Assembly: GCA_008632985.1 (NCBI GenBank)
Contig: QPGO01000085.1
Location: 248,001 to 312,000 of the forward strand
Direction of reading: 5' to 3'
Source: Psammoneis japonica
Taxonomy: Eukaryota
DNA length: 64,000 nt
This document shows positions 15,811 to 59,611 of this stretch, in pieces. The position numbers and the translations under genes were made by a program. The notes beneath the pieces were generated by a model, which was given only the letters and a program-made list of their open reading frames with translations, made no database searches and was not told where the DNA came from. Numbering within the stretch: the stretch's first letter is position 1; each line of letters opens with the position of its first letter.

Positions 15811-17258
15811 GATGCAGGTTGGAGTGCTTCATTTGTGCACTGGCTTCAACTCAAGCAATGTCTGGACACTCAATCTAATCAGAACAAATGAGATGGCAGC
15901 CAGTTGAAAACTGCGCCTGTTGCAATGACACACTGCTTGCCCAGTCTTCACAGCGTGGGGGCGGGGTTGCTGATTTTTTCCAAGTGCACAGTGGTTTCAC
16001 ATGACACACAAAAGGTGAGTGTCAGACTGCAGGTGTTGCAGGTGAAAAGTGCACAATGGCACAAACAAATCATTTGAACAGGCTTCAGGAATGACAGTGG
16101 CCAACTTCTTGTGAGTCAGTTTTCACCATTTCTTGTTCTTGATGTGCACCCCCACATTGCTTTTTTGTGCTGCAGATTGATGCAAGTGCAGCCACAAAAT
16201 GCCCCTGCACATCTCTGAGGTTTGCTTGGCCCTTGAGAAATGATGCGCCAAATTGCCAAAGAGGCAGCAAGAGTGATGTGATGTGTCATGCTGTGAACGA
16301 AAAAAAAAACAATTTTTTGCACTCCTTGTCTGCGCGCGCACTTGTGTTTTCTGTTTTTCACAGAAGAACAATGCACCGTGCACACTGCACAGTGGCCACC
16401 CACTGACACAAAGCAATGTGAAAGGGGACAAGCATGGTTGAGCAGGAGTGGTGCCTGGTGGTGTGCTCCAGCTCTGGGTGGGACATCCTTGCAGCCACCG
16501 CTGAGCTGTGGTGACATTGACAGTTTTTTGTCCCATGACTTTGGCAGAATTTTGTGCTGTTTGTTTGTGGTGCAATCAACGGGTGATCCACTCAACAGCT
16601 TTTGACACTTTTTTCTTTAGCGCCTTTGTGAAATGTCTTGAGGGTGGTGCAGGGCACGAGAATTTCCAAAAACCTCGACTGTGAATGACAGGTGCAAAGT
16701 GCATTGCAAACTTGGCTGGTCGTTTGTTTGAGTGCCAAAGAGACATGCTGTGTGTGCTGCATTGGCCAGAGAATGAGCTGCAGAGCTTGTGTGCAGAACT
16801 CGGTGTGCCCACGTCACATGGAGTCTGACCTTGGGCAGGAGCACACACATGGCATGCCTTTGTTTTCTTGGCAGCACTTTTTTGTGTGCTGAAAGGAGAG
16901 ACAAAGAAGATGCCTCTCCCAGAGCCAAGTCTCTCTAAGTTGGGAATCATGTGTGGGGCTCTGAGGAAATCAATGTCATCGAAAATCGAGCACAAATTGG
17001 TGTGACATGCACTGTCCCAGAACACAATTGTTGTCTCCGAACCTCTTCGCTCAGAGTGTTGCTCCCTGTTTGCGCCCCCGCCCATCGGCCGTGCCTGCGC
17101 CTGGCTGGCTGCGTGCACCCCTGCGTCAGTGGCACCATGGGATGTGGTTGTGTGTGATGTGTGATGATGTCATCACAGGCATTGAGAAGAGAATGTTCGC
17201 ACCAAGGCAAGTGCACATGCATGCATGAGCAATCTCCTGCATCCCACAGCACCCCTGA

Positions 17259-18587
17259 GGCACGTTCCCACCCTGACAATTTCGGCCGCAAAACAAACAC
17301 AATTTGGCCAAATTTGCGCATTTTCGGGCGTCAGGCTGGGAACGAATTCGATCGGCAAAAAAGATCAAAATCTCATGTCGAGCTCGGTGAGGACACCACT
17401 GTGCAACACTGTTCACACTGCCACTCTCTAGCAGCAGTGGCTCCAGCAGAGCTGCCAGCTAGAGAGACACCACAACATTGTCAGGGACAATCGTTGTCCA
17501 TTTTGCGATTGCTCTGTGGCAACCCAAGACCAATGACAACACCAGTGAAGGTCAGAAGAAATGCGCCAACATTCAATCCTCCATCAATGGCAAGAGTTGC
17601 ACGAGAGAGCAGAAAAAAGCACGAAACATTGGCATGCAGCAAGACTGCAGCATGCAAAACTGTTAAATGAAATTTCCACAGAATGTGAGGTGCCAAAAGA
17701 CACTGTTCTTAAAACTCTTGCGGTTCACCAATGGCCTGAATCCATTTCAAAGAGCAAGAGAAGGGCTGCAGACAATGGAGCAAGGCACTGTGAGGCACAA
17801 TGCCGACAATGTTGTGCAAAACATTGACCCCCCCACCAGCATCATTGTCCCAACATGCGACAAGATTGATGAAATGAGTTCACACAGCCTTCTTCACAGT
17901 CACATTCTATCACAACGGAGCACAAGCCTTGCTGTTGTTGTCGACGTGACCAAAATTCTTGTGTTCTTGACTCTTGACAGTCCATCAAGTGACAACCTCA
18001 AGCATGCACCAAAGAACCACCTCAATGCAACATCAGATCACATGTTGCCATGAAGATTCGGCCTCAAGTCTGCAGACGTGTGGTTTGTGAAGAATCCCAA
18101 CGCAAAATCTGAACAAGAGAAACAAAGACATCAAAAATGCCATCAGTCGACACGGTCGTCATCAGCCACAACAACAATGAAAAATCAAAATTCTGACAAC
18201 TTGATCGCATCAAGCGCAGTGTTGTTAACCTGTCTCCATGTTGTTGCCTTCGTAGACAGGACGGTCGTTCGTGTGTGAACGGGTCCGTTCATGGCAGCAG
18301 CCATCATGGTTGTTGTTGTGCGATCGGAGCGGAGAAAGAAAAATGGAGCTTGTGACGTGGCACGTTCGAGCTCCCAAAACGCCGAATTTACCGTGAAAAT
18401 TGTGTTTGCGGGAGAGAATTTACGACTGCCGACACCTGTCGTCGTAATTTGCTGACGATTGCGGCTGTAAATTGAAGGATGGAAAACAGACGTGCGATTT
18501 TTCTTGTGCGAGACTTTCTGCAGGAATTTTGTGTAGAACGAAATTGTGTTTGTTTTACGGCCGAAATTGTCGGGGTGGGAACGTGCC
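17259..18587. mobile_element. Non-autonomous PIF/Harbinger-like element with ~47-bp TIRs and mutated TAA TSD
   Basis: TIR GGCACGTTCCCACCC[T/C]GACAATTTCGGCCG[C/T]AAAACAAACACAATTT at 17259-17305, inverted at 18541-18587; flanks TGA and CAA; homologous empty site reads TAA (20538-20540, minus strand). Confidence 0.85.
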
Positions 18588-19599
18588 CAAATCTCGAGCC
18601 GCCTCGAAGGGACCCCACCAATTGAGCACTTTTGGTGCTCTGCAGCGCCGCGAAAAAAGCACGCGTCCCAGCAACCTCACCATGATGCTTTCAGAATGTT
18701 CATCCCCTCCCACTTCCGACGAAGAAGCGACCGACGGCACTGATGTTGTTGACCCCACTGCAACAGGTGATGTTGTTGAAATTGCCATCGCAAGCCTGTT
18801 GCTTTCGAAATTATGCCTCATTTGCTGACACTCTGTTTTTTCAGCTCCACCACCTGCCAAAGCTTCTGGCATGAATGACAATGCCGCTTCTGCCTTTCCC
18901 GCATCTGCCACGCCCGAAACGTTTCCTAACCCGACTGGCACAAGAGGCAATGATGTCGCTTTGTCTCTCATTGGCCCCAAACTGACGAAATTGTTTGGCA
19001 CCAACTAACATCATTTTCACGTTGCTGCACAGTGCCTGCCACTCATTCTGTCACCAACACCAACGCAATGACCAATGTTCCAGCGGATGACACCCCCTGT
19101 GCCTTTCCTGCTGTGCCCGGTCCACATCAGGCAATGACACATGTGTCATGCATTGCTGTTGTGCACCAAAAATGCCAACAGCACTGTTGCACTGTCTCAC
19201 GCCATTTTTGCTCATGCTCCACAGTGCATGCCACTGCTTCTGTTGCGAACACCATTGACGCATCGGCTTCCCTTGGCGACTTTGCCACGCCCAATGTTGC
19301 GGCCCAGGTCGGTGTTCCACCCATTGTGTCTGAATCACAGCAGACTTGTGATCCGGAAGACTTGCACTTCCTGTCTCCCGATCCAGTTCCTGCCGCCCAA
19401 TCCCCGACCCGCAACTGGGCGTCTCCTGTGACAGAGTCCCCTGAGAGGCTCGCTCCCGCCACATTGCGCGACATCATTCATGGCTCTGATGGGCGAAAGC
19501 GTCATGCTTCTAAGCTTCGTGATCATCGCAAAACGAAAAAGACCAAGGCCAACACCAAGGTGAAACCAAAGGATGAGCCATGGTTGTGCTGCAGGGAGG

Positions 19600-19830: not shown

Positions 19831-21426
19831 ACACAGTGTCGAAAGCTTGGGAGGCACAGGTCGAAAATGGGTTGTGGCCCGCTGTGGTGCAAGCAGTGGC
19901 ATGCACTGTGGAGCATGAGTGAAAATGGCGTGAGATGGTGCAACAGCACTGTTGGCATTTTTGGCACACAACAGCAATGCATGATGCGTGTGTCATCAAC
20001 TGATGGACCGGGCGCAGCAGGAAAGGCACCGGGGGTGCCATCCGCCGCAGCGTTGGTCATTGCGTTGGTGTTGGTGATGGAACAAGTGGCAGGCGCTGCG
20101 CAGCCACAGAAAAAAGGTGTCAGTTGGTGCCAAACAATTTCGTCAGTGTCAGGCCAATGAGAGACAAAGCAACACAATCACCTGTTGCGCCAGTCGGGTC
20201 AGGAAAGGTTCCGGGTGTGGCAGCTGCGGGAAAGGCAGAAGTGGCGTTGTCATTCATGCCAGAAGCTTCAGCAGGCGGTGGAGCTGAAAAAACAGAGTGT
20301 CAGCAAATGAGGTGTCATTTCGGAAGCAACAGGGCTGCGACGGCAATTTCAACAACGTCACCTGTTGCAGTGGGGCAAATGTCATCAGCACCGTCGGTCA
20401 CTTCTTCATCAGAAGTGGGAGGGGACGAACATTCTGAAAGCATCATGGTGAGGTTGTTGTGCCGCGTGCTTTTTTCGCGGTAAAGAGATGGCTGAAAACT
20501 GGTCAATTGGTGGGGTCCCTTCGAGGCGGCTCGAGATTTAGGGGAGAGCATGGTTCGGGATTTTTCCTGCAACTATCAGCATTTGTGTACAAATGTAATT
20601 GTCTTTACATTTATACAAATATAAAAATGCCATGACGTGAGCATACATCACCATGACATCACCAACCATACTCTCCACTGACGCAGGGGTGGCCTGCGCG
20701 CAGCTGCCAGTCTTGGGCGCCAGAAGCACATGCGGCAATGTTTCATAAGAATCCGGTACTGATTCGTGAAAGCCACGACACGACTGAAGGCAGAAATCGC
20801 CGCAAAACGCAAGTCACACGTCACAAAGTGTCGCTAATGTGTCCTAGAGACATAGATTACGATTAGAATGTGTCTTCTCTACATGAGTTGCGTAGAACGA
20901 AAACTCCTTTCTTCGGAGGAACTTGTGAAGTCAGAAACTGTGCGCACTGACGGTCGAAGTGCATCAGGGGTGTCAAAAGTAGAATTCTACACAGTCAGTA
21001 TGGAGTGAGGCACGAAAACCCCAGCTCAGTGAACCTAACACGTCATTTATTTAGGGCAGATGTCTCGTCACACGCAAGAAGGCTGCCGACGATGCCAAAA
21101 TCGCCCATAAGTGACAAACAGCTGCACCAGCTGACGCAAAATTATGAGCCAATCAAAACACGCCGAACTGAATTTGCGCTGAATGGATGGCCGTCAGCAT
21201 TTTACGATTAACGTGTAGAATCCTACCACGTACGAGACCTATTGCCTATTTATCCGAGTGTTTCTGACACCAGCGAACACTGCCGGAAGTTTCTCCTCTG
21301 CCGTCGTACATTGCTGCGGGAAAATAGTAGGTCGGCCACCTCAGCCACTGAAAGCAGACTGGAAGACACCATTCTGCTCACAAAAAGAGTTGACACATCA
21401 TCCATCACAAATTTCTCCGCAAAACA

Positions 21427-29936: not shown

Positions 29937-30312
29937 GAATGGAGGAAGTAGTAGTAGTATTTGGGTATTTTAGTTTGCAATCAGTTGTAGTTTAGTGTTT
30001 GAGATTATCGTATTAGAGAGCTGCCCATAAATAATATGGAAAGAGCTCATTTACCCTTAGGGTTGCTATGTAATAACTAATACTACTTGTGAAGAAACAA
30101 GAGGGCGGAGCAAGGCGACGATGTTTTGTCTAGAGTAGGACCAGATATTGAATATAAGCGTGCGACAGGCGCTGGCGTACGGTACCCACAGAGCGCCTAC
30201 AGTAGGCTCGTCGTCATGCAATCGCTACAGTAGAGAGAGAGGCTCTGCTGTACGAAGCGCCTGCGGCATTGAGCAGCCGTGCTCTACTACAGTGATGCAG
30301 AGGACAAACAAG

Positions 30313-30412
30313 AGTTGATGCAATGCAATGTGCAGAGGTTAAATCGGGTGGGTGTTAGCCCTAGTTGATGCAATGCAATGTGCAGAGGCTAAATCGGGTG
30401 GGTGTTAGCCCT
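30313..30412. repeat. Near-perfect 2 x 50-bp tandem repeat
   Basis: agttgatgcaatgcaatgtgcagagg[t/c]taaatcgggtgggtgttagccct twice, one mismatch. Confidence 0.95.
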
Positions 30413-30605
30413 TGCTACGTACGATAAAGTAGAGTACCGTAGAATACTCCTCTACTACAGTAGAGAGAGTAGAGGTAGGAGAACTTATCATGAAGGAGAG
30501 GGGAAGCAGGTGCACTGTAGAGGTAGGACTACCGTAGGGCCGTCTACTCTCTCTACTAGAGGGCCCTACGTAGCTACTCTCTAGCTCTAGAGGCCTATGA
30601 GGCTA

Positions 30606-31108
30606 CGACTAGCACAATGTGCAAAATAGACTATTACAAACTGAATACTTTGTATTTAAATATATAGTAAATGTCTGAATGATTGGTATGTAAAATGACT
30701 GCACATGACTCCTGCTGTAGAATTTGTACCAGTCTACGTATTTATTGCTCTACGAACTGAAGCCCTATAGAAATGTCTGGTATTAAGTAAATTCAAATGT
30801 CGGAGCCGCCAAAATGGACCGAAACGCCGGCCACGTCTTTTAATAAAACATACGAACTTGGCTATTGATTATGAAGCAGTCGGAGTTGAAAAAGTAATAT
30901 CAAAATTTGAGTCTTAATTTGAATAGGAAACATTTAAAAAATCTTCTAATTGTGTTACAAGTATCTATTTTTGACTACAAATTGTTTGGGTTACATCTGT
31001 AAAAATGCCCTAATTATTTGCTAAAAGCCGTTATCATTAAATATCGATGTACAAAAAATGCGATACGGGTGTTCGGGACGTTTTTTACAGTTCACATTGT
31101 GCTAGTCG
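30606..31108. mobile_element. AT-rich Tc1/mariner-type MITE (~500 bp), perfect 16-bp TIR, TA TSD
   Basis: TA|CGACTAGCACAATGTG ... CACATTGTGCTAGTCG|TA; non-coding AT-rich interior. Confidence 0.9.
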
Positions 31109-31614
31109 TAACTCCATACTGGTACTCTCTCTATAGCTAGAGTAGAAGTACTTTAGCGAGGCAAGAGGGGTCATTTGGTCACAGGCTCAGATTTGGTCTA
31201 CATAAAAGCCTAAAAAGTGAAAATGGCGGGAATGTTTTCTAACGGAAATCTATGATCATTACCATTTATTCAAGATTTGATAATATATTCAATGTTTCGA
31301 AATCACTGACCAGCGACAGCGCAAAGCGCAATGACCTCAAAAAGAAAACTGATCGCTGTGCTGTAGTCGCTGTGGCCACAGCAGTGTCCGGTTGTTGTGG
31401 TACTGTGGACGCTTGCTACATATTCTCTCTCTACTCTTCTTAGAGTAAATAGCTGTAGATGGGACTGTTCCAGACTTCTTGGAGTAAATCTGTACTCTGA
31501 AAACACGTCGGACGTTTGACCAAAGAGAGCACGGCGTTTCTCGTTTCTTGCTTCGCTCCATCTTTTCATTGGAATTCATTAGTTGTACTCTGTACAGCAT
31601 ATTTTGTTGCTAAA

Positions 31615-32946
31615 ATGAGCGAGTCAAAATTATCAAGAAGGATTCGTAATGCCACGTACTTTCCTTTGATCCTCTTGGTGGCACTAACAGCACTCTTTGC
31701 GTCCATGTCGAACCTTCGTCCTTACAGTCCGTCACTCCATACAGATACTACAGCTGTGACTGGAACGCAACAAGATTTCACACAGAGAATAACATACTCA
31801 TCATCAGAATCGATACCAACACCATGTGACCAAAACGGCGTTGATTTCATGAGGCTGCCGCCACCGAAATTCCAACAGAATGAGAAGTACACCGAGGTCA
31901 TTCCCAAGTGCCTCTCCAATCAACACGACTTTCGTCGCAACGCAACCAGGATTATTCCCTTTTCCGAAAGCACCGTGGATGGATCCACGGTCGTTTCACA
32001 AATTCGCCAAAACATTACGGCAGCTATTTGCTTTTTGGACAAGAAGCTAACCAACAATTTCTTTCACTTTCCGCACGCCATGCAAACCATCTTTCCGTGC
32101 TGGTCCTTTTTCCGACGTGTCCAGCGTATTGCCAACGACCGACCCATCAAAATTGGCTTTTGGCTCGGTAGAGATGATATAAACTTTTACGAACAGGACA
32201 AGAAAAGCCATACTTGGACCATTGATCTTGTCCAAAGAATGGGGGCGTGTCAGATGAAACCAAGACAAGATCGGAACTATGAATGGCAGGATCCCAAGAA
32301 CATCACGTATGCTTATGTTCATCATCAGAGCACGAATGACCATTTGTTGTTGTACAGAATGCCAAAGTATGAGAAATCGCTTGGATTCGATGGTGGCCCT
32401 TGCGATCAAGAAATGCTTCGTCGTCGAATCCTCGGAGAAGAGTTTCTGTCCACACAGCAAGCACAATCGAACCGATCATTATCCATTGGCATCATCAACC
32501 GCAATACAACTCGTCGAATTGCCAACATTGTGGAGCTTAAAGAGCGGCTTGAACGCGAGTATCCGCAAGCCAACATTGATGTTTCGTTCATGGAAGACAT
32601 GTCTTTTATACAACAAGCAGAGTATTGGGCCAGTCACAACGTCGTTATTGCTGGACATGGCGCTGCGATGACAAATACCGTCTTCATGTCATCAGAATCA
32701 TCGCTGCTGATCGAGCTGTTTCCACCCAAACTAAAAAATACAATGTATGCCAAACTTGCAAGAGACAGTGGCATTACAAGAAAGGAATGGCGCACGCCGG
32801 TGGCGTTCGACGACAATGTCACGGCAATGATGAACACCAGGACACTTGAAGGTCGCAAACAAGCGCGTGCAATGGATTTGACCCCAGATATTGATCAGAT
32901 TCTGCGTATGATCCGAAGGAACATTCGTTGGTTTCGATATGATTGA
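31615..32946 (+). CDS. GT61-family glycosyltransferase (type II membrane)
   Basis: N-terminal TM; IGIINRNTTRRIAN...FMEDMSFIQQ...VVIAGHGAAMTNTVFM...LIELFP (GT61 HGAGLTN-type motif). Confidence 0.85.
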   Translation: MSESKLSRRIRNATYFPLILLVALTALFASMSNLRPYSPSLHTDTTAVTGTQQDFTQRITYSSSESIPTPCDQNGVDFMRLPPPKFQQNEKYTEVIPKCLSNQHDFRRNATRIIPFSESTVDGSTVVSQIRQNITAAICFLDKKLTNNFFHFPHAMQTIFPCWSFFRRVQRIANDRPIKIGFWLGRDDINFYEQDKKSHTWTIDLVQRMGACQMKPRQDRNYEWQDPKNITYAYVHHQSTNDHLLLYRMPKYEKSLGFDGGPCDQEMLRRRILGEEFLSTQQAQSNRSLSIGIINRNTTRRIANIVELKERLEREYPQANIDVSFMEDMSFIQQAEYWASHNVVIAGHGAAMTNTVFMSSESSLLIELFPPKLKNTMYAKLARDSGITRKEWRTPVAFDDNVTAMMNTRTLEGRKQARAMDLTPDIDQILRMIRRNIRWFRYD

Positions 32947-33449
32947 ACTTTTTGTTTTCACGCGTACAACTCAACCATTGAACACGCAACAGAGCACCGA
33001 TTTCAGCTATCCACACATAGATTAGAACACCCTAACTGACACTCTAGCTGCCTCATCAGTTCGACATTCTGCATTACCTTTTCCGTACGTTTATGCCGGG
33101 GGGTACAAAAATACAGTGGGGGTTGCGAGTTATTACGACCACACAAACAGGTGCGTTTCATTGGACAGCGTGACTTGCGGCGATGCGTTAATTGACATGT
33201 TGTCTATAACTAGCATCGTTTAAAAATTTGTGTGCATGTTCTTTTGTTATTCTTGCTTGATGCAGGCTTTTATGGACTTTTCAAATTGGAAACCGAATGG
33301 AAAAAAGTCTGGAAGAAAGGAGAACTCAAAGCTGCAAGCACATTTCAAAACATGGAATCAGAGTTGACAAGAGCAAATGAGGCTGGGCTCAGTTGCTGGT
33401 GTCAAGCCAACAAACACAATCTTTATTTGCCTGAAGATGCCCAGAAATC

Positions 33450-36240
33450 CAAGTGAACAATTTGTTTGCAATGCATTGTCTTTCCACATCTGGTTTCACA
33501 AGACTGGGTGCTGCAACAACTGTGCTGGCTCACCATGTGTTTTTGGGATCCAAGAAATCATGCAGACGTTCACACAAGTCGCAAGTTGAAAGATGCATTG
33601 TTCCACAACACAGAACCCAAAAACAACAGTTTCTGCAACAATCTCAACTGCATGCCAGGTTCAAAAAGGGATGTGAAAATGCCTTGGCCAGGGCAACTGA
33701 TGCATCCGCAGAACCTTCCGGCAACTGAAATTTGAAGTCGAGTGCATCAAAGCTGGTGCAGCCTGATCTTGAGTGGAGCTCCTTCAGAAGAAGCATGCCC
33801 TTGGTGCTGTGGTCATTTGGAATCATGACAACTCATTTTTTACCTTCAACAGTGCACAGAAAGTTGAAGAGGTCAGCGTCAAAGTGTGCAGAGTGTGAGT
33901 GCCCTTTGTGGCAAGCCAGATCCTCGACCAACCAAAGAAACCATGATCTTTTTTCTGCTGCTTTTCCTTGAAGGGGGCATGATTGCTGCAACCAAGTTCA
34001 CTGTTTGTCATGATTTGTTGGATGCTCTTGTTCACTTCTGTGCCAACTTCCTGGAACAGGTCCTTTTCCATGTCCACATCTTCAATGCGGAGCACTTGCA
34101 GTCTGTGCTGTGTCCAGCCTCAGTGCTGCTGGCAATGGATTGCTTTAGATTTGTTGCTGCTGCAGGGGTCTCATTTGAAACAAGCCCCTTGTGAGCCAGA
34201 AAAACCACAATCAATCTCAAGATCTCTGCCTTCTCCAAGGCCTTTCCCAAGGCCTTCTCTGGGGCTTTCAAAGTGCAAGAGGCCAAAGCACTGAAAATCA
34301 TGGACCTGTGTGAGCCACAGCCACTTCACATTTGTGAACATTTTGTTGGAAGAAAACCAGCCACTGACAAGTTTTTTGCCAGCAAACGGTCCCTGCTCTG
34401 CATTGCAGGGCCTCTTTGGATGTTGAAAAATGTTTTTTTCCCTTGTGGCTTGCGTGTGCTGTGCTTGCCACAAGAACAAGAAAATTCCCTTTGTTGTTTG
34501 CAGAGTGGCCCATCCATGCTAAATCTTCCATTTTCCTGTCAATGGTCTCAAGAGCTCCAACCATTTCCTAAAGAAGTGGAGCTGCACAGTGTGCACTTGC
34601 TTGAGAATGCAGTTTTTGCTGCTTCTGATGACTCCAAGGACAAATGCAACCTGGTCGTTCATGACAGAGCAAGACAGGCCAACAAAGATTCCATGAAATG
34701 ACTGGCTTTCTCAATGGAAGAGTGGGCCAATGTGGCTTCAAACCTGTTGACGTAACATCCTCAGCTTTTTGAATCAGAGGTGGCAGTGTTCTGTTCAAAC
34801 ATGGCAAGAAAGACTGTCTCAATTCTTGGGAGACACCGGACAAACACACCAAGGTGATCATGAAGTTTCAGGAGAACAAGGTGCTCCCTCCATTGTTGGG
34901 CACGGCCACATGAGAGCACCACAATCATTGCACACCAGAAGATGAACTTGTGACACATGCCTTTTGATGGCCAATCTGGAGATTTGAACAAAGGTGATGT
35001 TGCTGCTTTTGTCAAGGAGAAATGCCATTTTGCTGGTGGGTCTGCTCAAATTGGCACTTGTGCTTGAACGCAGCACCCAGGAATTGAAGAAAGAGCTGAA
35101 AGACTTGCTTGGTGGCCTCAAGAAAGAGCTGTGGAAAGCCTTGACAAACAACAGTGTTCCAAGATGAGCTGATGACACCACAAGAAATTCATTGATGCAA
35201 TGGCTTGGAGATGACCGCGGTGTTGCAGTCGATGCTGTCAGTGAGTTTGTTGCCATGGCTGCACATGCAAAGAAGGGGCATGAGCTTGCCAATGCAATGA
35301 GCATGGTTGCAAATGCCACAGGGGACTTGGCTCTAAAAAGATGGGTGTTTGAACTCAAACAACTTGAGGAGATCAAAAAAGGATTTCAATGGTGGTGTGG
35401 TTGTGTCTCTGCACTGCAACAATGATGATGGTGTTTTCTGCCAACCAACTCATCAAGTTTGCTGCAATGATGATGAGAAGATCCTTGACGGTGAGGTCAA
35501 TGAGAGCAACTTGACAACAATGTTTTGCTGGAAGTGGAATCAAGATTGTTTTGATGTTGCCATGTGCAGCAACAGGACCCCAGTCACTGTCCAATTCACC
35601 ACATCTTCAAAGCACTCCATCAAATTTCATCGCACGAGGGAGTCAAGGAAAGCACATGAGGTGGAGACAGGGCTCTCAAGGCAGACACAAATTTTTGTGT
35701 TGGCATCAGCAATGAGGGCAACAAGATCTGTTGGGATCCAAAGTCAGGACATGGAGCGTCACACTGTGGTGACAAGGGCTGTGAGACATGTCTTTGCTCT
35801 TCATTTCCGTTGGTCGTGGGTGACATGCAGATGATCCTTGTGCGGCAAGCCCAAAAGGAGAACAACTTTCACCCCAACAAAGACTCTGGAGAAATGGTCA
35901 CAATGCACCACAAAAAGCGAAAGCACCAAGATGCATGATCTCATGTTCAAAATTTCAAAGTGGCTGTGACGCCTCTTTTGCGCCAAGGCAAGCTGCACAG
36001 TCGCGCGGAAAAACCAGCCACATTGTCATGGCAATGATGAACACCAGGACACTGGAAAGACACAAACAGGCATGTGCAATGGATTTGACCCCAAATGTTG
36101 ATCAGATTCTCCGCATGATCTGAAGAAACATCCGTTGATTTCGATTTGATTGGACTTGTGTGTTTTTTCAAGTGTTTTGACTCAACGACTTGTTGAACAC
36201 GGGCCACATGCAATGCAGCGCCAATGATGTCAAGGACTTT
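33450..36240. other. Hypermutated domain 2
   Basis: Near absence of TpA and strong CpG depletion; TA returns at ~36250 (ttagattagaattccctaac). Confidence 0.9.
34270..35700 (+). pseudogene. Decayed Crinkler (CRN)-type NTPase + restriction-endonuclease-like gene
   Basis: LHICEHF (~LYIRE), CIAGP.. broken P-loop at ~34400, VKEKCHFAGGSAQ at 35011-35049 (~KYYFAGGSAR), KWNQDCFDVAM...TVQFTTSSKHSIKF (~KWNQGxxD...QxT...HSLK). Confidence 0.7.
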
Positions 36241-36300
36241 CAGACCACACTTAGATTAGAATTCCCTAACTGTCACTCTAACTGCCTCAACAGTTCAAAC
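36022..36300 (+). pseudogene. Duplicated 3' end and 3' UTR of the GT61 gene (copy of ~32815-33065)
   Basis: AMMNTRTLERHKQACAMDLTPNVDQILRMI* versus AMMNTRTLEGRKQARAMDLTPDIDQILRMIRR; UTR similarity continues to ctgcctca. Confidence 0.92.
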
Positions 36301-36504
36301 TTTTTACACCGGAGGATTAAAAGGCAGGGTTACAAATAGAGAGGACCACAAAAAAAATTACGGACAGCAACGGCACACTGATGACGGACGTACAGAAGAT
36401 TAATTCGCGCGCGCCGCGCGAAGCTCTCACGCAAATCCTTCGCAACTTGAACTTTTGAACGTGACAACAACCATCGGCGTTTCGACTGCAACAAAAAGCC
36501 AATC

Positions 36505-37110
36505 ATGATGATGAAGGTTTTGCTCTTGTCGTCGTTATTCCTGTCTCAGGCTCTGGCCTTTGCTCCAGTGCCAAGTTCTACCGCTAGACTTGGATTGACG
36601 AGAGTGTACAGCACTGAAGCAGAAGAACCACAAGATCCGTTCGATGCGTACCAACTCGGCCAAAGGGAGATGGCGTTCAAGGACGCCGTCATGGGATCGG
36701 GTGAACCTGCTGAGAATGGTGATGTCTTGACTGTCTCCTTTGTTGGAAAATTGTATCCATCTGGAAAACAGTTCCTTTCCGAAGATGCTTATCCCTTTAC
36801 TGTTGGCGAAGGCAAAACGCTTCCTGGTTTCGACAAGGGCCTTGTTGGAGTAAAAGAGGGATCAACACGTATTCTGAGAGTTCCACCGGGTCTTGCTTAT
36901 GGACCGGGTGGGTCAGGGACCGCTGTGCCAGGAAACGCCGATCTTGAATGGTACGTAGAAGTCAAGAGCATTGCACGAGGACCCATTGAGGGGTTCCTGG
37001 CACGATTCGGAAAGAAGCGAGCCATTGTGTTGGCTGTCGTAGTCACACTCTTTGCGGTGGCACCTACTCTTGACAAGATGATTGCAGACTTACTCAGTGG
37101 TAACAAATAA
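36505..37110 (+). CDS. FKBP-type peptidyl-prolyl isomerase, plastid-targeted
   Basis: Signal peptide plus ALAFAP; FTVGEGKTLPGFDKGLVGVKEGSTRILRVPPGLAYG...VPGNADL; C-terminal TM. Confidence 0.93.
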   Translation: MMMKVLLLSSLFLSQALAFAPVPSSTARLGLTRVYSTEAEEPQDPFDAYQLGQREMAFKDAVMGSGEPAENGDVLTVSFVGKLYPSGKQFLSEDAYPFTVGEGKTLPGFDKGLVGVKEGSTRILRVPPGLAYGPGGSGTAVPGNADLEWYVEVKSIARGPIEGFLARFGKKRAIVLAVVVTLFAVAPTLDKMIADLLSGNK

Positions 37111-37727
37111 ATTGTAGATGCAAGCGCACAGAATGGTGTGCTAATCCTCGCTAGATTTAGTTGGCGCGGGGAAGAATCTAGCACATGTCACAACCTACCT
37201 TAGTAGCCAGAGTATCCGCAGCAGTTGTGCAAACCACTGTCCTTAGGCTAGTCCACGTCATAAATGCACAATATGATGATATCTATACAATGTCGTTACC
37301 GAATCTTAATGAGGTATGCATTGTACTTCAGCGCGATCAGCCGCACGTTGAGAATGCGCCAGATTTCAGAGTCGTGAGTCGTACGCTCTAGAGGAACACC
37401 GTTGCTCTCTAGCGAGAGTTGCTTTAGATGAGGTGCATCTTCTGTATCGCTGGTACCAGTGCCACAATTCAAACAAAATCCGATATCTTCGTTACTAGGC
37501 TAATACCCCATGGTTCCACCTGTACGGTACGGTCCAACCAGGCAGGCAGTGCAGGCAGTCGGAAGGATAACCGCACGTCTGTCCGCAACGCGAGACGCAA
37601 CTGCGCAAAGGATGTGCCGGGTTTTAGATAGGATACACTACTACGACTATTTCGTAGGCCAAGATCCGTCTCCAGTTCGCTTTGAAGGGGCTCAATTAGT
37701 CTCAATATTATTAAGGACCTTACAATG

Positions 37728-38498: not shown

Positions 38499-39021
38499 CT
38501 TGTGCTTTTGTTTCCGTTGATGTTCAACACAAGCGTTTTGTGTTATTGATTTTTTGTTTGACTCTCAGTACCTCTTGATCAATCGATAGCCGCAAAATTC
38601 TCGAGTATCTAGCCAAATTTTAAGCAGTGTAACAAACAAGCACGAGACAGCGACAAACATGCAACAAGCCTCTGCTACAAAAGCGTCGCTAACAACACTG
38701 CTTTTGATGATGATGTGTCAACAGTCGCGATAACGTTGAATGTGTGATGTTGACTTGCGGTGGATGTGGATCGCGACGCGCGAATAAACGCACGATTTGC
38801 GGAAAGACGTTACTCCACGTGGAAGATTAGAGGCAATCATACCAGGTAAGTAAGAGCTCAGAGCTCGTTGCATCGTCCGTATTTCGTACGATATTTTCGC
38901 GCCATTTTTTGGAAACATTTGCGGCGTGCCGGCGCGCGACAAAGAGAGGAGAAAAAACAAAGATCCAACACAACACACAGTCTGAAGTCGCACACCAAGA
39001 AAGCCATTGAAGAAAGCCACC

Positions 39022-39839
39022 ATGTCCACCAACGTCGCCGTTACCCCCACCGACACCAGTGGTGATGCTGTCGTTCCTGAGTCAGTGAAGAGTGACAATG
39101 ATCGAAAGCGCAAAGCCGAAGAACAACGCGGTCGCAACGACGAAGTACATAAGGAAATCTCTGACGATGAAGAAGGACGTTCGATCGAACAGCTCGCTTG
39201 GGAAGACTTATGGAGTGAAAACTTTGCTACTGTGGCCAAAGCAACAGCCCATCTTGCTCGTATGACTGAGGTGGGTGGTTCAGATTCCGATCGAAAGACC
39301 ATCTATGATGGTACTGGACATGGTGCCCTCCTTCTTAAGAATATCGAAAAATCTATGAACGATGCCGAGCGGCTTGATTTCGTTACTGAAACTCTTTCCT
39401 TGCTCAGGTTCATTGCCAGCGAAAGATGCAAATACAGTCGTGTTCTTGCAGACGAGACTCCCAAGATTCTTGAAATTCTCATCAAGGTTCTTCAGAAGCT
39501 TCCTCAAGATGCGGTTTCCTCCGCCGAAGTCTGTTGTATCTTGGCTTACTTGACTTGCAACAACGAACGCTTCAGGAATAAAGTCGTTGAAGCTGGCGTG
39601 ATTGCGTTGGCCGTCGAACTTATGGAAAGGTTCAGTGACAAAAAATTTGTGCAAAAGCACTGTTGTGGTTTGCTTATCCGTCTTTGAACATCAAGGAAAG
39701 AGAAATGAAAAAAGTTCTTGACGCAGCCAATGCTGCCAACGCCTTAACAGCGGTTGCCCGCGCCAAGGATAATTTCCGAAACGATGAAGAAATTAAGCGA
39801 TGCACCACAACGTGCATCAAGCTCTTGAACGAGAACTGA
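39022..39839 (+). CDS. ARM-like protein, paralogue of 58660-59460; frameshift at ~39685
   Basis: QLAWEDLWSENF, TGHGALLLKNIE; shifted frame continues ...AANALTAVARAKDNFRNDEEIKRCTTTCIKLLNEN* like the paralogue. Confidence 0.75.
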
Positions 39840-40479
39840 AGGAAATTGCAGCAAAAAAAAAAAAAAAACAGAATCTTTCTTAATTGCCTTATTAGAAATC
39901 AAGTCTTGTAGTATTGCGTTGCGTTCTCCCCTTAGGTATGTGCGGAGCCCTCTAAGGAAAACGAAACTACGCTGATCTCTGACTTATGAGTAGACCTTAC
40001 AAAATACCAACCCCTCGTAGACTTTAGCTACGCAACTTGATCGCAGTAGCTCATACTCTTCTGGCTCGTTTTAGCGCACAAGTCACACGAAGAGATACCG
40101 CATACTGTAGACAATGGCCGCTAAACCTAAGACCGATTTCGTTTCATATTCATTACTCTACAGCTTTACTTTAGAATTTTATAACCAATACAAGACCATA
40201 ATTGGACGCGTGATCTTGCCATTTAGAATCCACAATAAACAAAATGGTGTTGCTGATATCGCCAATGCCTTGAACAGCAGCTTCTCTTTCGCCACGGCAA
40301 CTTTGTCAAGTTCGTCCACAAGTCGCCTTCGCTCTGCCATCGCTGAGCAGCTACCGTAGTCACCACCAGGGCTCAAGTTGTAGTGAATGATAACATAACC
40401 AACACCTACAGAACAAGCTACATGCAGCACTCTTCGCCTCCCATCCGCCCTCCTTTAGTTGCACGCAACGCGAAGGAGC

Positions 40480-58266: not shown

Positions 58267-58659
58267 GTTAGAGATTTTTTATGTGCCGCCTGTGCTTGCA
58301 CTTTAAACTTGCACGAGAGCGGGTTAGTTACCATATATTCTACAACAATAACCGCTTTCTAGTCTTAGTTTTGGTCATTACAATTTGTTCGTTCTCTTTT
58401 TCGTGCCCGAATTGTCTTCACTTTTTTTCTAATTTAGATGCAACAATCGCACCAAGTTGGACAATGAGGTAGAGAATGCCCGCAAGCCTTACGAAGGGGT
58501 AGATAGACGTGATAGCCACTGCATCGCCGTCACAGCACTTTCTTCTGTTCTCTCTGAACAATCAGGGGGGAAACGCCATTGCCGTGTAACAGAAAAATCG
58601 CACTTACTCGGTCAACGACAATGCCATCCACGGTTTCACCGTTAACTATCACTTCCAAC

Positions 58660-59460
58660 ATGTCCACCGCCGACGCCGCTATCGACAAGAACTGCGATGA
58701 TGTTATCGTTCCTCATACCGTTAGGAGTAACAGCGACCGAAAGCGTATAGCCGAGGAACAAGGCGGTCGCAATGACCAAGAACATGGCAATGGAAAGGAA
58801 GAGAGTTTGTTCCAAAAGCTTGCTTGGGAAGACTTGTGGAGTCACGACTTTGAAACGGTTAGGAAAGCCACCAAGCAGCTTGCTTGTATGATTAAAGAGG
58901 ATCTCGGAAAGGCGAGAGCCATGAACATCGTCAGCGCAACTGGACACGGTGCGATTCTGCTGAAGAATATTGAAACATCTGTCGCTGACGCCAATCGAGA
59001 TTCTTTAGCTGTTGCTTACGCCCTTCACATTCTTACTCATCTCGTCACGAGCAATGCAGAGTGTAGAAAGGCTCTCGCGGCGACTCCCAAGGTCATCGAC
59101 ACCCTCATCAAGGCCATGCAGAAGTTTGCAAAAAACGGCCTCTGCTTCGCAAATGCATGCTGCTTCTTGCATCAGCTGACTCTAATCAACGACGACTTCA
59201 AGATCAAGATTGTCAAAGAGGGCGCGATTCCATTGGTCGTCGAAGGTATGGACAGCTTCTATTGCTCGAAGGTTGTACAAATGAATGGCGCTGGATTGCT
59301 TGCAATCTCCTTTGTGCAAAAGGAAACTAAAAAGACCGCTGAAGTAGCCAAGGCTGCCAAAGCTTTATCAGTGCTGGCTCGTGCCAGGGAGAACTTCCCA
59401 CACAATGTTGAAATCAAGAAACGTACCGCGAAGTGCATCAAATTCTTGATCGAGAACTGA
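58660..59460 (+). CDS. ARM-like protein (intact family member)
   Basis: KLAWEDLWSHDF, TGHGAILLKNIE, IVKEGAIPLVVEGM, ends CIKFLIEN*. Confidence 0.8.
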   Translation: MSTADAAIDKNCDDVIVPHTVRSNSDRKRIAEEQGGRNDQEHGNGKEESLFQKLAWEDLWSHDFETVRKATKQLACMIKEDLGKARAMNIVSATGHGAILLKNIETSVADANRDSLAVAYALHILTHLVTSNAECRKALAATPKVIDTLIKAMQKFAKNGLCFANACCFLHQLTLINDDFKIKIVKEGAIPLVVEGMDSFYCSKVVQMNGAGLLAISFVQKETKKTAEVAKAAKALSVLARARENFPHNVEIKKRTAKCIKFLIEN

Positions 59461-59611
59461 AGGTATTTGAAGAGGGTGAAAACGGAGATTGAATTCTCCG
59501 TAGTATTTTCCAACAGGACACGGTAACTAGTGCGTTGCGTCTCGTCTTTATATCAAAACCTCTGGCGAGAACTTTAGTAACGTAGATTCTAACTCCTTTA
59601 TATGTAGCACC

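Follow-up and report, generated by a model that had tools for sequence, protein, structure and literature searches.

Repeat-induced point mutation (RIP), known from Neurospora and other fungi, is triggered by pairing, needs RID and a sexual cycle, and alters both copies of a duplicate by C-to-T changes that turn CpA into TpA. In the rhizarian alga Bigelowiella natans, TpA hypermutation has been described in integrated DNA of NCLDV (nucleocytoplasmic large DNA viruses) as well as virophages (Mettrop et al., bioRxiv 10.64898/2026.01.13.699255). According to the main text of that preprint, 230 of 231 regional mutations, measured de novo on a single-copy viral region, were A>G/T>C at TpA, the rate per generation was raised about 1000-fold in some lines only, and an ADAT2-type deaminase was proposed but not shown. 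A literature search outside the subscription journals found no other description of TpA hypermutation, and none for diatoms. Here we analyse a stretch of 64,000 bp from the diatom Psammoneis japonica (the window; positions 248,001–312,000 of the forward strand of contig QPGO01000085.1 in the 91-Mb assembly GCA_008632985.1; coordinates below are window positions unless a contig is named), in which the end of a GT61 glycosyltransferase gene is accompanied by a dead duplicate. The observation is confirmed and its earlier interpretation partly supported: the pair is a genuine, if small, before/after case of the TA-specific mutation process described once in another alga. With a probability of about 0.6, we consider that the dead copy lost its TA and CG dinucleotides because it lies inside a mutated zone of 3 kb that surrounds an inserted Crinkler/RHS-like gene; the cause would be a mutator of DNA, probably a TadA/ADAT-type adenine deaminase, followed by a slower decay of CpG.

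The process here resembles that of the B. natans regions, as the main text of the preprint presents them, in that TA is changed to TG or CA on both strands, within inserted DNA, with apparently no second copy required and unevenly between lineages; the host GT61 and FKBP genes are spared here, while Copia elements and the insert are hit, together with one host fragment lying inside the zone. It differs in that B. natans is a rhizarian with two affected viral regions in which most TA are still present, whereas the stramenopile-like genome studied here is near saturation. Unlike in B. natans, the DNA hit belongs to Copia elements, to a gene of Crinkler/RHS-like type and to a fragment of a host gene, and the zones span a few kb and end inside elements. 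A preference for TAC/TAT and a CpG decay that follows are further traits of the process here, where the relative rate of TA over CpG decay is 34- to 53-fold; the terms 'diatom', 'CpG', 'trinucleotide' and 'TAC' do not occur in the main text on B. natans (10.64898/2026.01.13.699255), the flanking context of which may sit in its supplement.

The intact GT61 ORF (31615..32946, + strand; 443 aa from the first likely ATG; PF04577, E 1.1e-16) contributes its last 44 codons and its 3' flank to the duplication. The gene-side copy (32813..33062, +) has 13 CG and 9 TA, six of the latter being sensitive, i.e. in TAC/TAT context on one strand, as opposed to the resistant class TTAG/CTAA; the unduplicated 1198 bp of the ORF contain 40 TA. 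The dead duplicate (36020..36296, +) is 76% identical to it over 277 columns (self-BLAST, E 1.7e-48) and has two in-frame stops and 6 CG. No sensitive TA is left in its 277 bp vs 6 in the 250 bp on the gene side, where their density is similar to the 24–30 per kb of the neighbouring GT61 and FKBP genes. Past 33062/36296 the homology is marginal, its score being reached by 29 and 65 of 1000 shuffles.

A reading of the sequence alone (hereafter the sequence-only reading) had listed base changes that distinguish the duplicate from the intact gene end, and pairwise alignment confirmed all of them: CG>TG at 32822, CG>CA at 32854, CGCG>CATG at 32864/32866, TA>TG at 32889, TA>CA at 32907, and CGA>TGA at 32914, which creates an in-frame stop (32914/36121). 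The other in-frame stop is due to TGG>TGA at 32929. Among the 19 substitutions in the coding part, 7 are signature changes (5 at CG, 2 at TA) and 12 are ordinary divergence. TG or CA has replaced 5 of the 8 coding CGs, the other three being kept, and 2 of the 3 coding TAs, the third now being TT; beyond the two signature losses, the gene TAs that read TT in the duplicate number two, that third one included (32938, 32965), and one lies opposite a gap (33008). Set against a background of 7 transitions in 112 other sites, with p values worked out by hand, the CG losses exceed chance (5/8, p ~0.001) and the TA losses are marginal (2/3, p ~0.04). On its own, the pair is thus good evidence for CpG decay but only weak evidence for TA loss. 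TA in the duplicate never faces TG or CA in the gene at a well-aligned site, and the direction proposed earlier, with TA and CG ancestral and TG/CA derived, holds. The outgroups by which the sequence-only reading proposed to polarise each change are too distant for base-level polarity: three database homologues of GT61 are 27–29% identical and two paralogues 29–31%, and only the Arg at codon 32866 is common to 3 of these 5.

The two copies are separated by an unmutated spacer (33063..33272; 14 TA, 11 of them sensitive, in 210 bp) and by inserted DNA depleted of TA and CG (33273..36019; 7 TA in 2747 bp, four of the seven being CTAA/TTAG). The insert holds a broken P-loop NTPase gene of a Crinkler/RHS-like family (34318..35932, +), scattered over several frames with TGA stops. 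In a full HMMER search, the insert gave a single hit, to the protein P0004 (E 4e-12; 44–65% identity across several frames), which belongs to a family of at least 36 proteins. Of 36 entries listed for one gene of this genome, 3 are named relatives, from Nitzschia and Cylindrotheca. None of the 19 aligned P0004 tyrosines is kept in the insert; 7 are now Cys, 5 His, 2 Arg (CGC) and 5 something else, whereas 32 of 44 Phe, Trp and His positions are unchanged (p 2e-8). Changes of Ile to Met/Thr and of Arg to Cys/His/Gln/Trp/stop obey the same two rules, loss of TA and loss of CG.

The family assignment rests on the intact relative. Weak Pfam AAA/STAND matches in 12 of 18 members indicate a P-loop NTPase domain, the predicted model of P0004 (pLDDT 82) is closest to CED-4 and other AAA+/STAND folds, and P0004 was placed in Crinkler/RHS clusters of the Atlas at 0.93–0.99. 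There was no Pfam Crinkler or RHS hit on P0004 and no REase fold among the fold matches listed for its model; Pfam matched none of 12 reading frames of the insert, including 33273–34317, the stretch relevant to an N-terminal header domain. Crinkler/RHS-type (CR) NTPase-REase genes have been linked to transposons (PMC5289972, as far as consulted). The likeness to them lies in the P-loop NTPase and the Atlas neighbours; the difference is that P0004 has no Pfam Crinkler/RHS hit and is the gene product of a free-living alga. Insertion of this gene would have created the 250-bp duplication. No close second copy of the insert was found in DNA and protein searches of its own genome, the counts of which are lower bounds. 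A distant relative lies on one contig of the second haplotype (run X1): a 13-kb contig that matches three short pieces of window 34807–35580 and represents a further family member elsewhere, to which weak hits on C12 may also belong.

On the left, the zone of TA loss ends within 33272–33424, about 210 bp beyond the duplicated segment; the working GT61 copy would be spared because it is outside the zone. On the right, the edge lies in the interval 36115..36305, between the last signature loss (36114) and the first TAC-containing site that is kept (36305), 200–390 bp ahead of the start of an intact FKBP-type isomerase gene (36505..37110, +; PF00254, E 2e-18) with normal TA and CG, which bounds the zone. 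The sequence-only reading had placed an edge inside the duplicated segment, at about 36250, since the distal TAs are kept. They are indeed kept, at 36252, 36257, 36267 and 36279 (36252..36280), and the duplicate retains 0 of 4 proximal vs 4 of 4 distal TAs (Fisher p 0.014, with a breakpoint picked post hoc). All four are TTAG or CTAA, however, and since they belong to the best-surviving class, an edge at ~36250 is only weakly supported. Survival of all four resistant sites inside the zone would have a probability of 0.002–0.04, depending on the survival figure used, and a sharp-edge model with two lost and four kept sites weakly favours an edge ahead of them, by ~20–50:1 or more; the scan is rough, with a sharp edge assumed and survival values partly set by hand. 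A gradient is the better picture, since in Copia copies the edges fade over 500–700 bp and resistant sites are the first to return. In the Copia series, edges within homologous sequence are real, and at this locus the edge can be placed only to 36115–36305. Just beyond the zone and upstream of FKBP, window 36400–36420 has a dense run of CG (18 CG in 208 bp), a possible boundary or promoter feature.

The zone around GT61 is one of many. Three blocks of the window (~11–20.5, 33.3–36.3 and 42.5–54.4 kb) have an observed/expected TpA of ~0–0.1, with CpG mostly low and TpG and CpA at ~1.8. When 264 kb of the contig were sampled in one-kb bins, TpA was <0.2 in 77 of the 264; CpG was likewise low (<0.4) in 57 of the 77 and normal in 8, and bins poor in CpG with normal TpA did not occur. 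Survival of TA in 69 TA-poor vs 152 normal kb depends on context, being 0.40 for TTAA, 0.21 for CTAA/TTAG, 0.12 for CTAG, 0.10 for GTAA/TTAC and at most 0.05 for the others (GTAC 0.02, ATAT 0.01). Where tandem duplicates lie outside the zones, neither copy has been stripped of TA (53 and 60 TA). Other duplicates were seen in which copies differ or are alike in TA: 1) window 17256–18587 and contig 85:87629–88962 are 87% identical over 1365 bp, with 81 vs 13 TA, 69 vs 60 CG, and 28 TG and 28 CA as products; 2) 215540–215820 and 217677–217959 on contig 85 have 21 vs 1 TA, one copy being stripped; 3) 82526–83037 and 77088–77559 on the same contig have 16 vs 0 TA; and 4) window 18586–19239 and 19891–20542 form an inverted pair (655 bp, 86% identical) in which both members are TA-poor yet CG-rich.

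Since the GT61 pair is small, the general claims were put to the test in Copia copies chosen among 804 candidates with a reverse transcriptase (RT) domain, of which the best 150 supplied 30 loci and, with wider flanks, 26 places; 14 copies of family 1 were analysed fully (C388:8910–15480, C44:55534–62112, C90, C16, C37, C322 and L112–L119). In a triple polarised by an outgroup, 63 TAs common to two Copia relatives correspond in the third to 31 TG, 26 CA, 5 TA and 1 TT; AA was preserved there at 186 of 193 sites, CG was still present at 64 of 81, and CA went to TA at 1 of 139. Of six full-length copies of family 1, a young family, five have intact 5-bp target duplications and one has a mismatch. 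Within single copies, the loss is confined: in C388, 120 of 126 TAs are gone from the first 3.9 kb (the zone) vs 1 of 93 beyond 4.45 kb, and C44 lost 78 of 95 within its zone vs 3 of 116 outside. The loss of TA was 34 and 53 times that of CpG in the same zones (C388 and C44, respectively), and CpG loss has the same edge in C388 (21/233 inside, 1/94 outside, p 0.007). Loss of CG and loss of TA were treated as one process in the sequence-only reading; that of TA is both faster and earlier.

Compared with C16 as the reference, the 13 other family 1 copies lost 0–52 of 58 TAs in the first 1.5 kb, 11 of them being hit (11–52 gone). The zones begin at the side of the 5' long terminal repeat (LTR) and extend 1.5–5.5 kb, on different contigs and in both orientations, whereas in all 13 copies the last kilobase lost at most 2 of 43 TAs. 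Losses in the 5' LTR are 0–11 of 14 TAs and in the 3' LTR 0–2 of 13, and in three copies the 5' LTR lost 11 of 14 vs 0–1 of 13 in the 3' LTR. The LTRs of a pair are identical at insertion. The TA change therefore happens in DNA, after integration, on one of two homologous copies. The suggestion that, unlike in RIP, one duplicate is hit while the other is spared, with an edge inside homologous DNA, is borne out by these LTR pairs and by the internal edges of the 14 copies, so that its proof comes from the Copia series rather than from the GT61 pair.

At sites lost in two copies, both show the same state in 1103 of 1733 cases (64%), which equals the 0.64 predicted from context alone, and 95 of 132 sites lost several times have both TG and CA; the edits are independent in each copy. 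Template-switch chimaeras as the cause of the internal edges were rejected for most copies on the basis of this 64% concordance and of the graded edges. The earlier idea that the process is position-dependent did not hold in the sense of spread from neighbouring old heterochromatin: C16 and C322 are unhit between flanks of TA-poor DNA, as is the 3' end of C90, which adjoins an old zone. Simple spreading from adjacent old zones was thereby rejected, the hit side following the orientation of the element. This polarity and the unhit copies between old zones indicate that the zones track features of the element rather than pairing or mere adjacency.

Other Copia families behave differently in polarity or CpG. 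In family 2 (L120–L131), the polarity is reversed: among 12 copies, 7 of 11 usable LTR pairs have about twice as many TAs or more in the 5' LTR as in the 3' LTR, TAs persist in the 5' LTR and in an AT-rich leader (35–44 per 500 bp in most copies), and the body and 3' LTR are depleted. Further families (L012, L014–L018, L020, L027, L032–L035 and others) have TpA of 0.1–0.3, CpG of 0.8–0.9 and long frames (up to ~1990 aa), and may have kept transposing after editing or adapted to avoid TA.

The base 3' of the edited A was C in 204, T in 150, G in 71 and A in 52 of 477 events, and in heavily hit Copia zones CTAA/TTAG was kept at 18 of 41 sites vs 29 of 379 for sites containing TAC or TAT. These counts, together with TTAA as the best survivor, show that TAC/TAT is preferred and TAA resisted; a wider context of 2–4 bases did not improve the prediction of the edited strand (0.63–0.64). 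There is also a weak A>G tail: A>G accounts for 22 of the 27 other changes in the C388 zone, with C as the next base in 16, vs 0 of 1626 sites changed outside. Counted by strand site, A>G occurred at 187 of 430 TA vs 23 of 3438 other A. Once context is allowed for, no strand bias is left (p 0.11, 0.38, 0.82). Bursts on a single strand were rejected, since there are no strand runs (runs test p 0.77, 0.18), in which respect the pattern departs from ADAR/APOBEC hypermutation; ADAR-type RNA editing was rejected because both strands are equally affected and LTR pairs differ. In short, TA changes to TG or CA in about equal numbers, after insertion and independently in each copy, with TAC/TAT preferred, and the change stays within zones whose edges grade over several hundred bases, homology being neither needed nor followed.

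The second haplotype provides a further view of the locus. Contigs of run X1 span the stretch, and 20 letters in 32700–36520 distinguish them from the assembly; an assembly or basecalling artefact is ruled out by these independent reads. Within 33300–36250 (2951 bp holding 37 CG and 7 TA), there are 15 events: 8 are CG vs TG/CA, four in each direction, one is TA>CA (at 34753), one is TG vs CA, and 5 are others. In the duplicate itself, position 36096..36097 (strand not assigned; alignment and X1 contigs) is a three-state site, with TA in the gene (32889), TG in the assembly and CA in X1, the simplest reading of which is that TA was edited twice, on opposite strands. The X1 duplicate has additionally lost CG at 36133, a CG also present in the gene, and at 36187, so that decay is ongoing in the proximal part of the duplicate.

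These observations suggest the following course. A mutator would turn TA into TG on either strand, the putative enzyme being a deaminase that converts A to inosine, which is read as G. Repeated single events of this kind in duplex DNA, fixed by replication, would each destroy their site; as one edit removes the palindromic TA for the other strand as well, TG/CA would be the end state. Slower CpG decay would follow TA loss, likely via 5-methylcytosine. The limits of a zone would be set by features of the element and by neighbouring active genes rather than by duplication, a promoter or transcript end lying ~200 bp from each edge here, and the presumed role would be the disabling of inserted DNA by changes of Tyr codons to Cys or His. 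TadA and ADAT2 share with this process, in the parts of the source consulted, A-to-G change with a 5' T and a preferred 3' C (PMC12255301), but TadA requires TACG in RNA, whereas here DNA is changed on both strands with no preference for G at +2. Methyl-CpG decay, as in diatom transposable elements with DNMT5a-dependent CG methylation (DNMT5-methylated transposons; PMC9998398, consulted in part), covers the CG to TG/CA half of the pattern but not the far faster loss of TA.

Several points weigh against this reading. A search of the genome with PF00383 gave 9 matches, an ordinary-looking set with no expansion, whose members read by their motifs as dCMP-, guanine-, RibD-, TadA- and ADAT2-like. 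The motif lacks the G at +2 of TadA (117 vs 119), and an edited A in TAC is indistinguishable by sequence from a modified T in GTA. The distances from zone edge to gene are raw values, listed for 18 zones. Choice of Copia copies by RT score favours those with an unhit RT, but 3'-LTR sparing is also seen in copies with a hit RT (L117, L119), so that this choice gives no account of it. CpG loss does not co-localise with TA loss in C44 (6/183 inside, 2/134 outside, p 0.47), and 79 of 99 internal sites (80%) have the same state in C388 and C44, above the prediction from context, so that some edits may be inherited. The TG and CA at 36096 could derive from a CG intermediate, 2 of the 19 insert Tyr positions being CGC, although such intermediates are rare in young Copia copies (4 TA>CG vs 880 losses). 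In the GT61 pair, only two sites bear the TA signature and two more TAs became TT. The functional gene, called untouched in the sequence-only reading, does keep its six sensitive TAs, including silent and 3'-flank ones, but at two aligned UTR sites, which are not polarisable, the gene reads CA and the duplicate TG (32967, 32990), and one gene allele differs as CA/TA at 32493, so that "untouched" is not absolute. It is also possible that GT61 lineages that were hit were removed by selection, leaving the working copy intact.

A broader form of the deaminase reading, which we hold only tentatively and rate at less than even odds, is that diatoms and chlorarachniophytes share a natural defence by A-to-G editing of DNA: a nuclear TadA/ADAT-type enzyme would read TAC/TAT, be loaded at a point set by the element, advance over generations ahead of methylation-dependent CpG decay, halt ~200 bp short of active genes, ignore homology and erase host fragments inside the zone.

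Among the alternatives, the most serious, though unlikely, keeps the zones and changes the chemistry: a thymine lesion (an oxidised, alkylated or aminated T in RTA pairing with G), or error-prone patch repair of the polymerase-eta type on methylated DNA. It is consistent with the fact that the strand cannot be assigned from sequence, with the common edge of CpG decay in C388, with a slight A>G excess at AA (9/712 vs 14/2726 at CA/GA, p 0.04), and with 27 genome matches to the C5-methyltransferase domain PF00145, clustered on few contigs, with several partly broken copies on C297, C301, C10 and C28. Polymerase eta mutates both TA and AA, whereas here AA is spared (9/712 vs 187/430 for TA), which makes that enzyme unlikely. 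The earlier and 34–53-fold faster loss of TA, with 8 of 264 bins poor in TA at normal CG and none the reverse, also speaks against it. No Tet/JBP match was found in the genome, where the control was also silent, so that this negative proves little. Diatoms have a RID-related DNMT4 of unknown function (PMC9998398, consulted in part), which would suit a methylation-linked mechanism.

The duplicate could also be explained, improbably in our judgement, by ordinary pseudogene drift and CpG decay, with the 36250 edge arising from context and small numbers; the mutator may then span the whole duplicate or barely touch it. Twelve of the 19 coding differences are not of the signature type, the two of three TA losses have p ~0.04 by hand, the kept TAs all belong to the CTAA/TTAG class, which also makes up 4 of the 7 survivors in the insert, two of the four kept TAs are resistant only through a neighbouring base that differs from the gene, and CG losses run on to 36296. 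This explanation does not fit the total lack of sensitive TA in 277 bp vs 24–30 per kb in adjacent genes, the low probability (0.002–0.04) of four resistant survivors in the zone, the saturation of the adjoining insert, or the opposite product carried by X1 at 36096. Origin of the duplicate as a retrocopy was also considered, its end being no more than 3 bases from where an X2 contig stops, X2 not being on record as RNA; no poly(A) comes after the duplicate, and for a retrocopy to land 3 kb from its parent in the same orientation would be unlikely. The X2 contigs, transcriptome-like but not on record as a transcriptome and not used as evidence, cover only GT61 (31367–33059) and FKBP (36506–37127) and lack the insert; the GT61 contig and the duplicated segment have ends that differ by no more than 3 bases.

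A RIP-like process, triggered by homology and hitting both duplicates with affected gene alleles purged by selection, shares with the present one dense dinucleotide-specific transitions that kill repeats and transposons in association with methylated DNA, and could draw on possible selection at GT61 and on the mostly repetitive nature of the DNA hit; it is nevertheless very improbable and largely refuted by the non-coding LTR pairs hit on one side only (11/14 vs 0–1 of 13 in three copies), as well as by the spared last kilobase throughout a family with at least 14 near-identical copies, the unhit tandem duplicates outside zones, the silent and 3'-flank TAs kept in GT61, the single-copy target in the main text on B. 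natans, and the direction, since RIP makes TA from CA/TG and here TA is lost (57/63 to TG/CA) from one LTR or one part of an element.

Elsewhere in the window, the region upstream of GT61 (30100–31120) has TA-rich hairpin-like repeats, with TpA at 1.2 in 30001–31000, and the summed depth of X1 contigs is 1442 at 31000–31216 vs ~59 elsewhere, probably owing to a high-copy small repeat without TA loss. Two paralogous ARM-repeat-like genes (39017–39851 and 58655–59472; 65% identical) have normal TA in both copies.

The value of the GT61 pair is that host DNA was hit once inside a zone; otherwise it is a minor exhibit. The Copia series shows targeting without pairing, unlike RIP, and its mappable edges make the targeting rule and the enzyme testable. 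Current adenine base editors were evolved from an RNA enzyme. If a natural enzyme deaminates adenine in genomic DNA, it would be of interest to base editing. The dating of diatom transposons by LTR divergence, and the annotation of Cys/His-rich 'genes' lying in zones, would be biased. If the reading is true, a TA-specific A-to-G mutator would be a genome-wide process in a second lineage of the stramenopiles, alveolates and Rhizaria (SAR), and not a quirk of the viral inserts of one alga.

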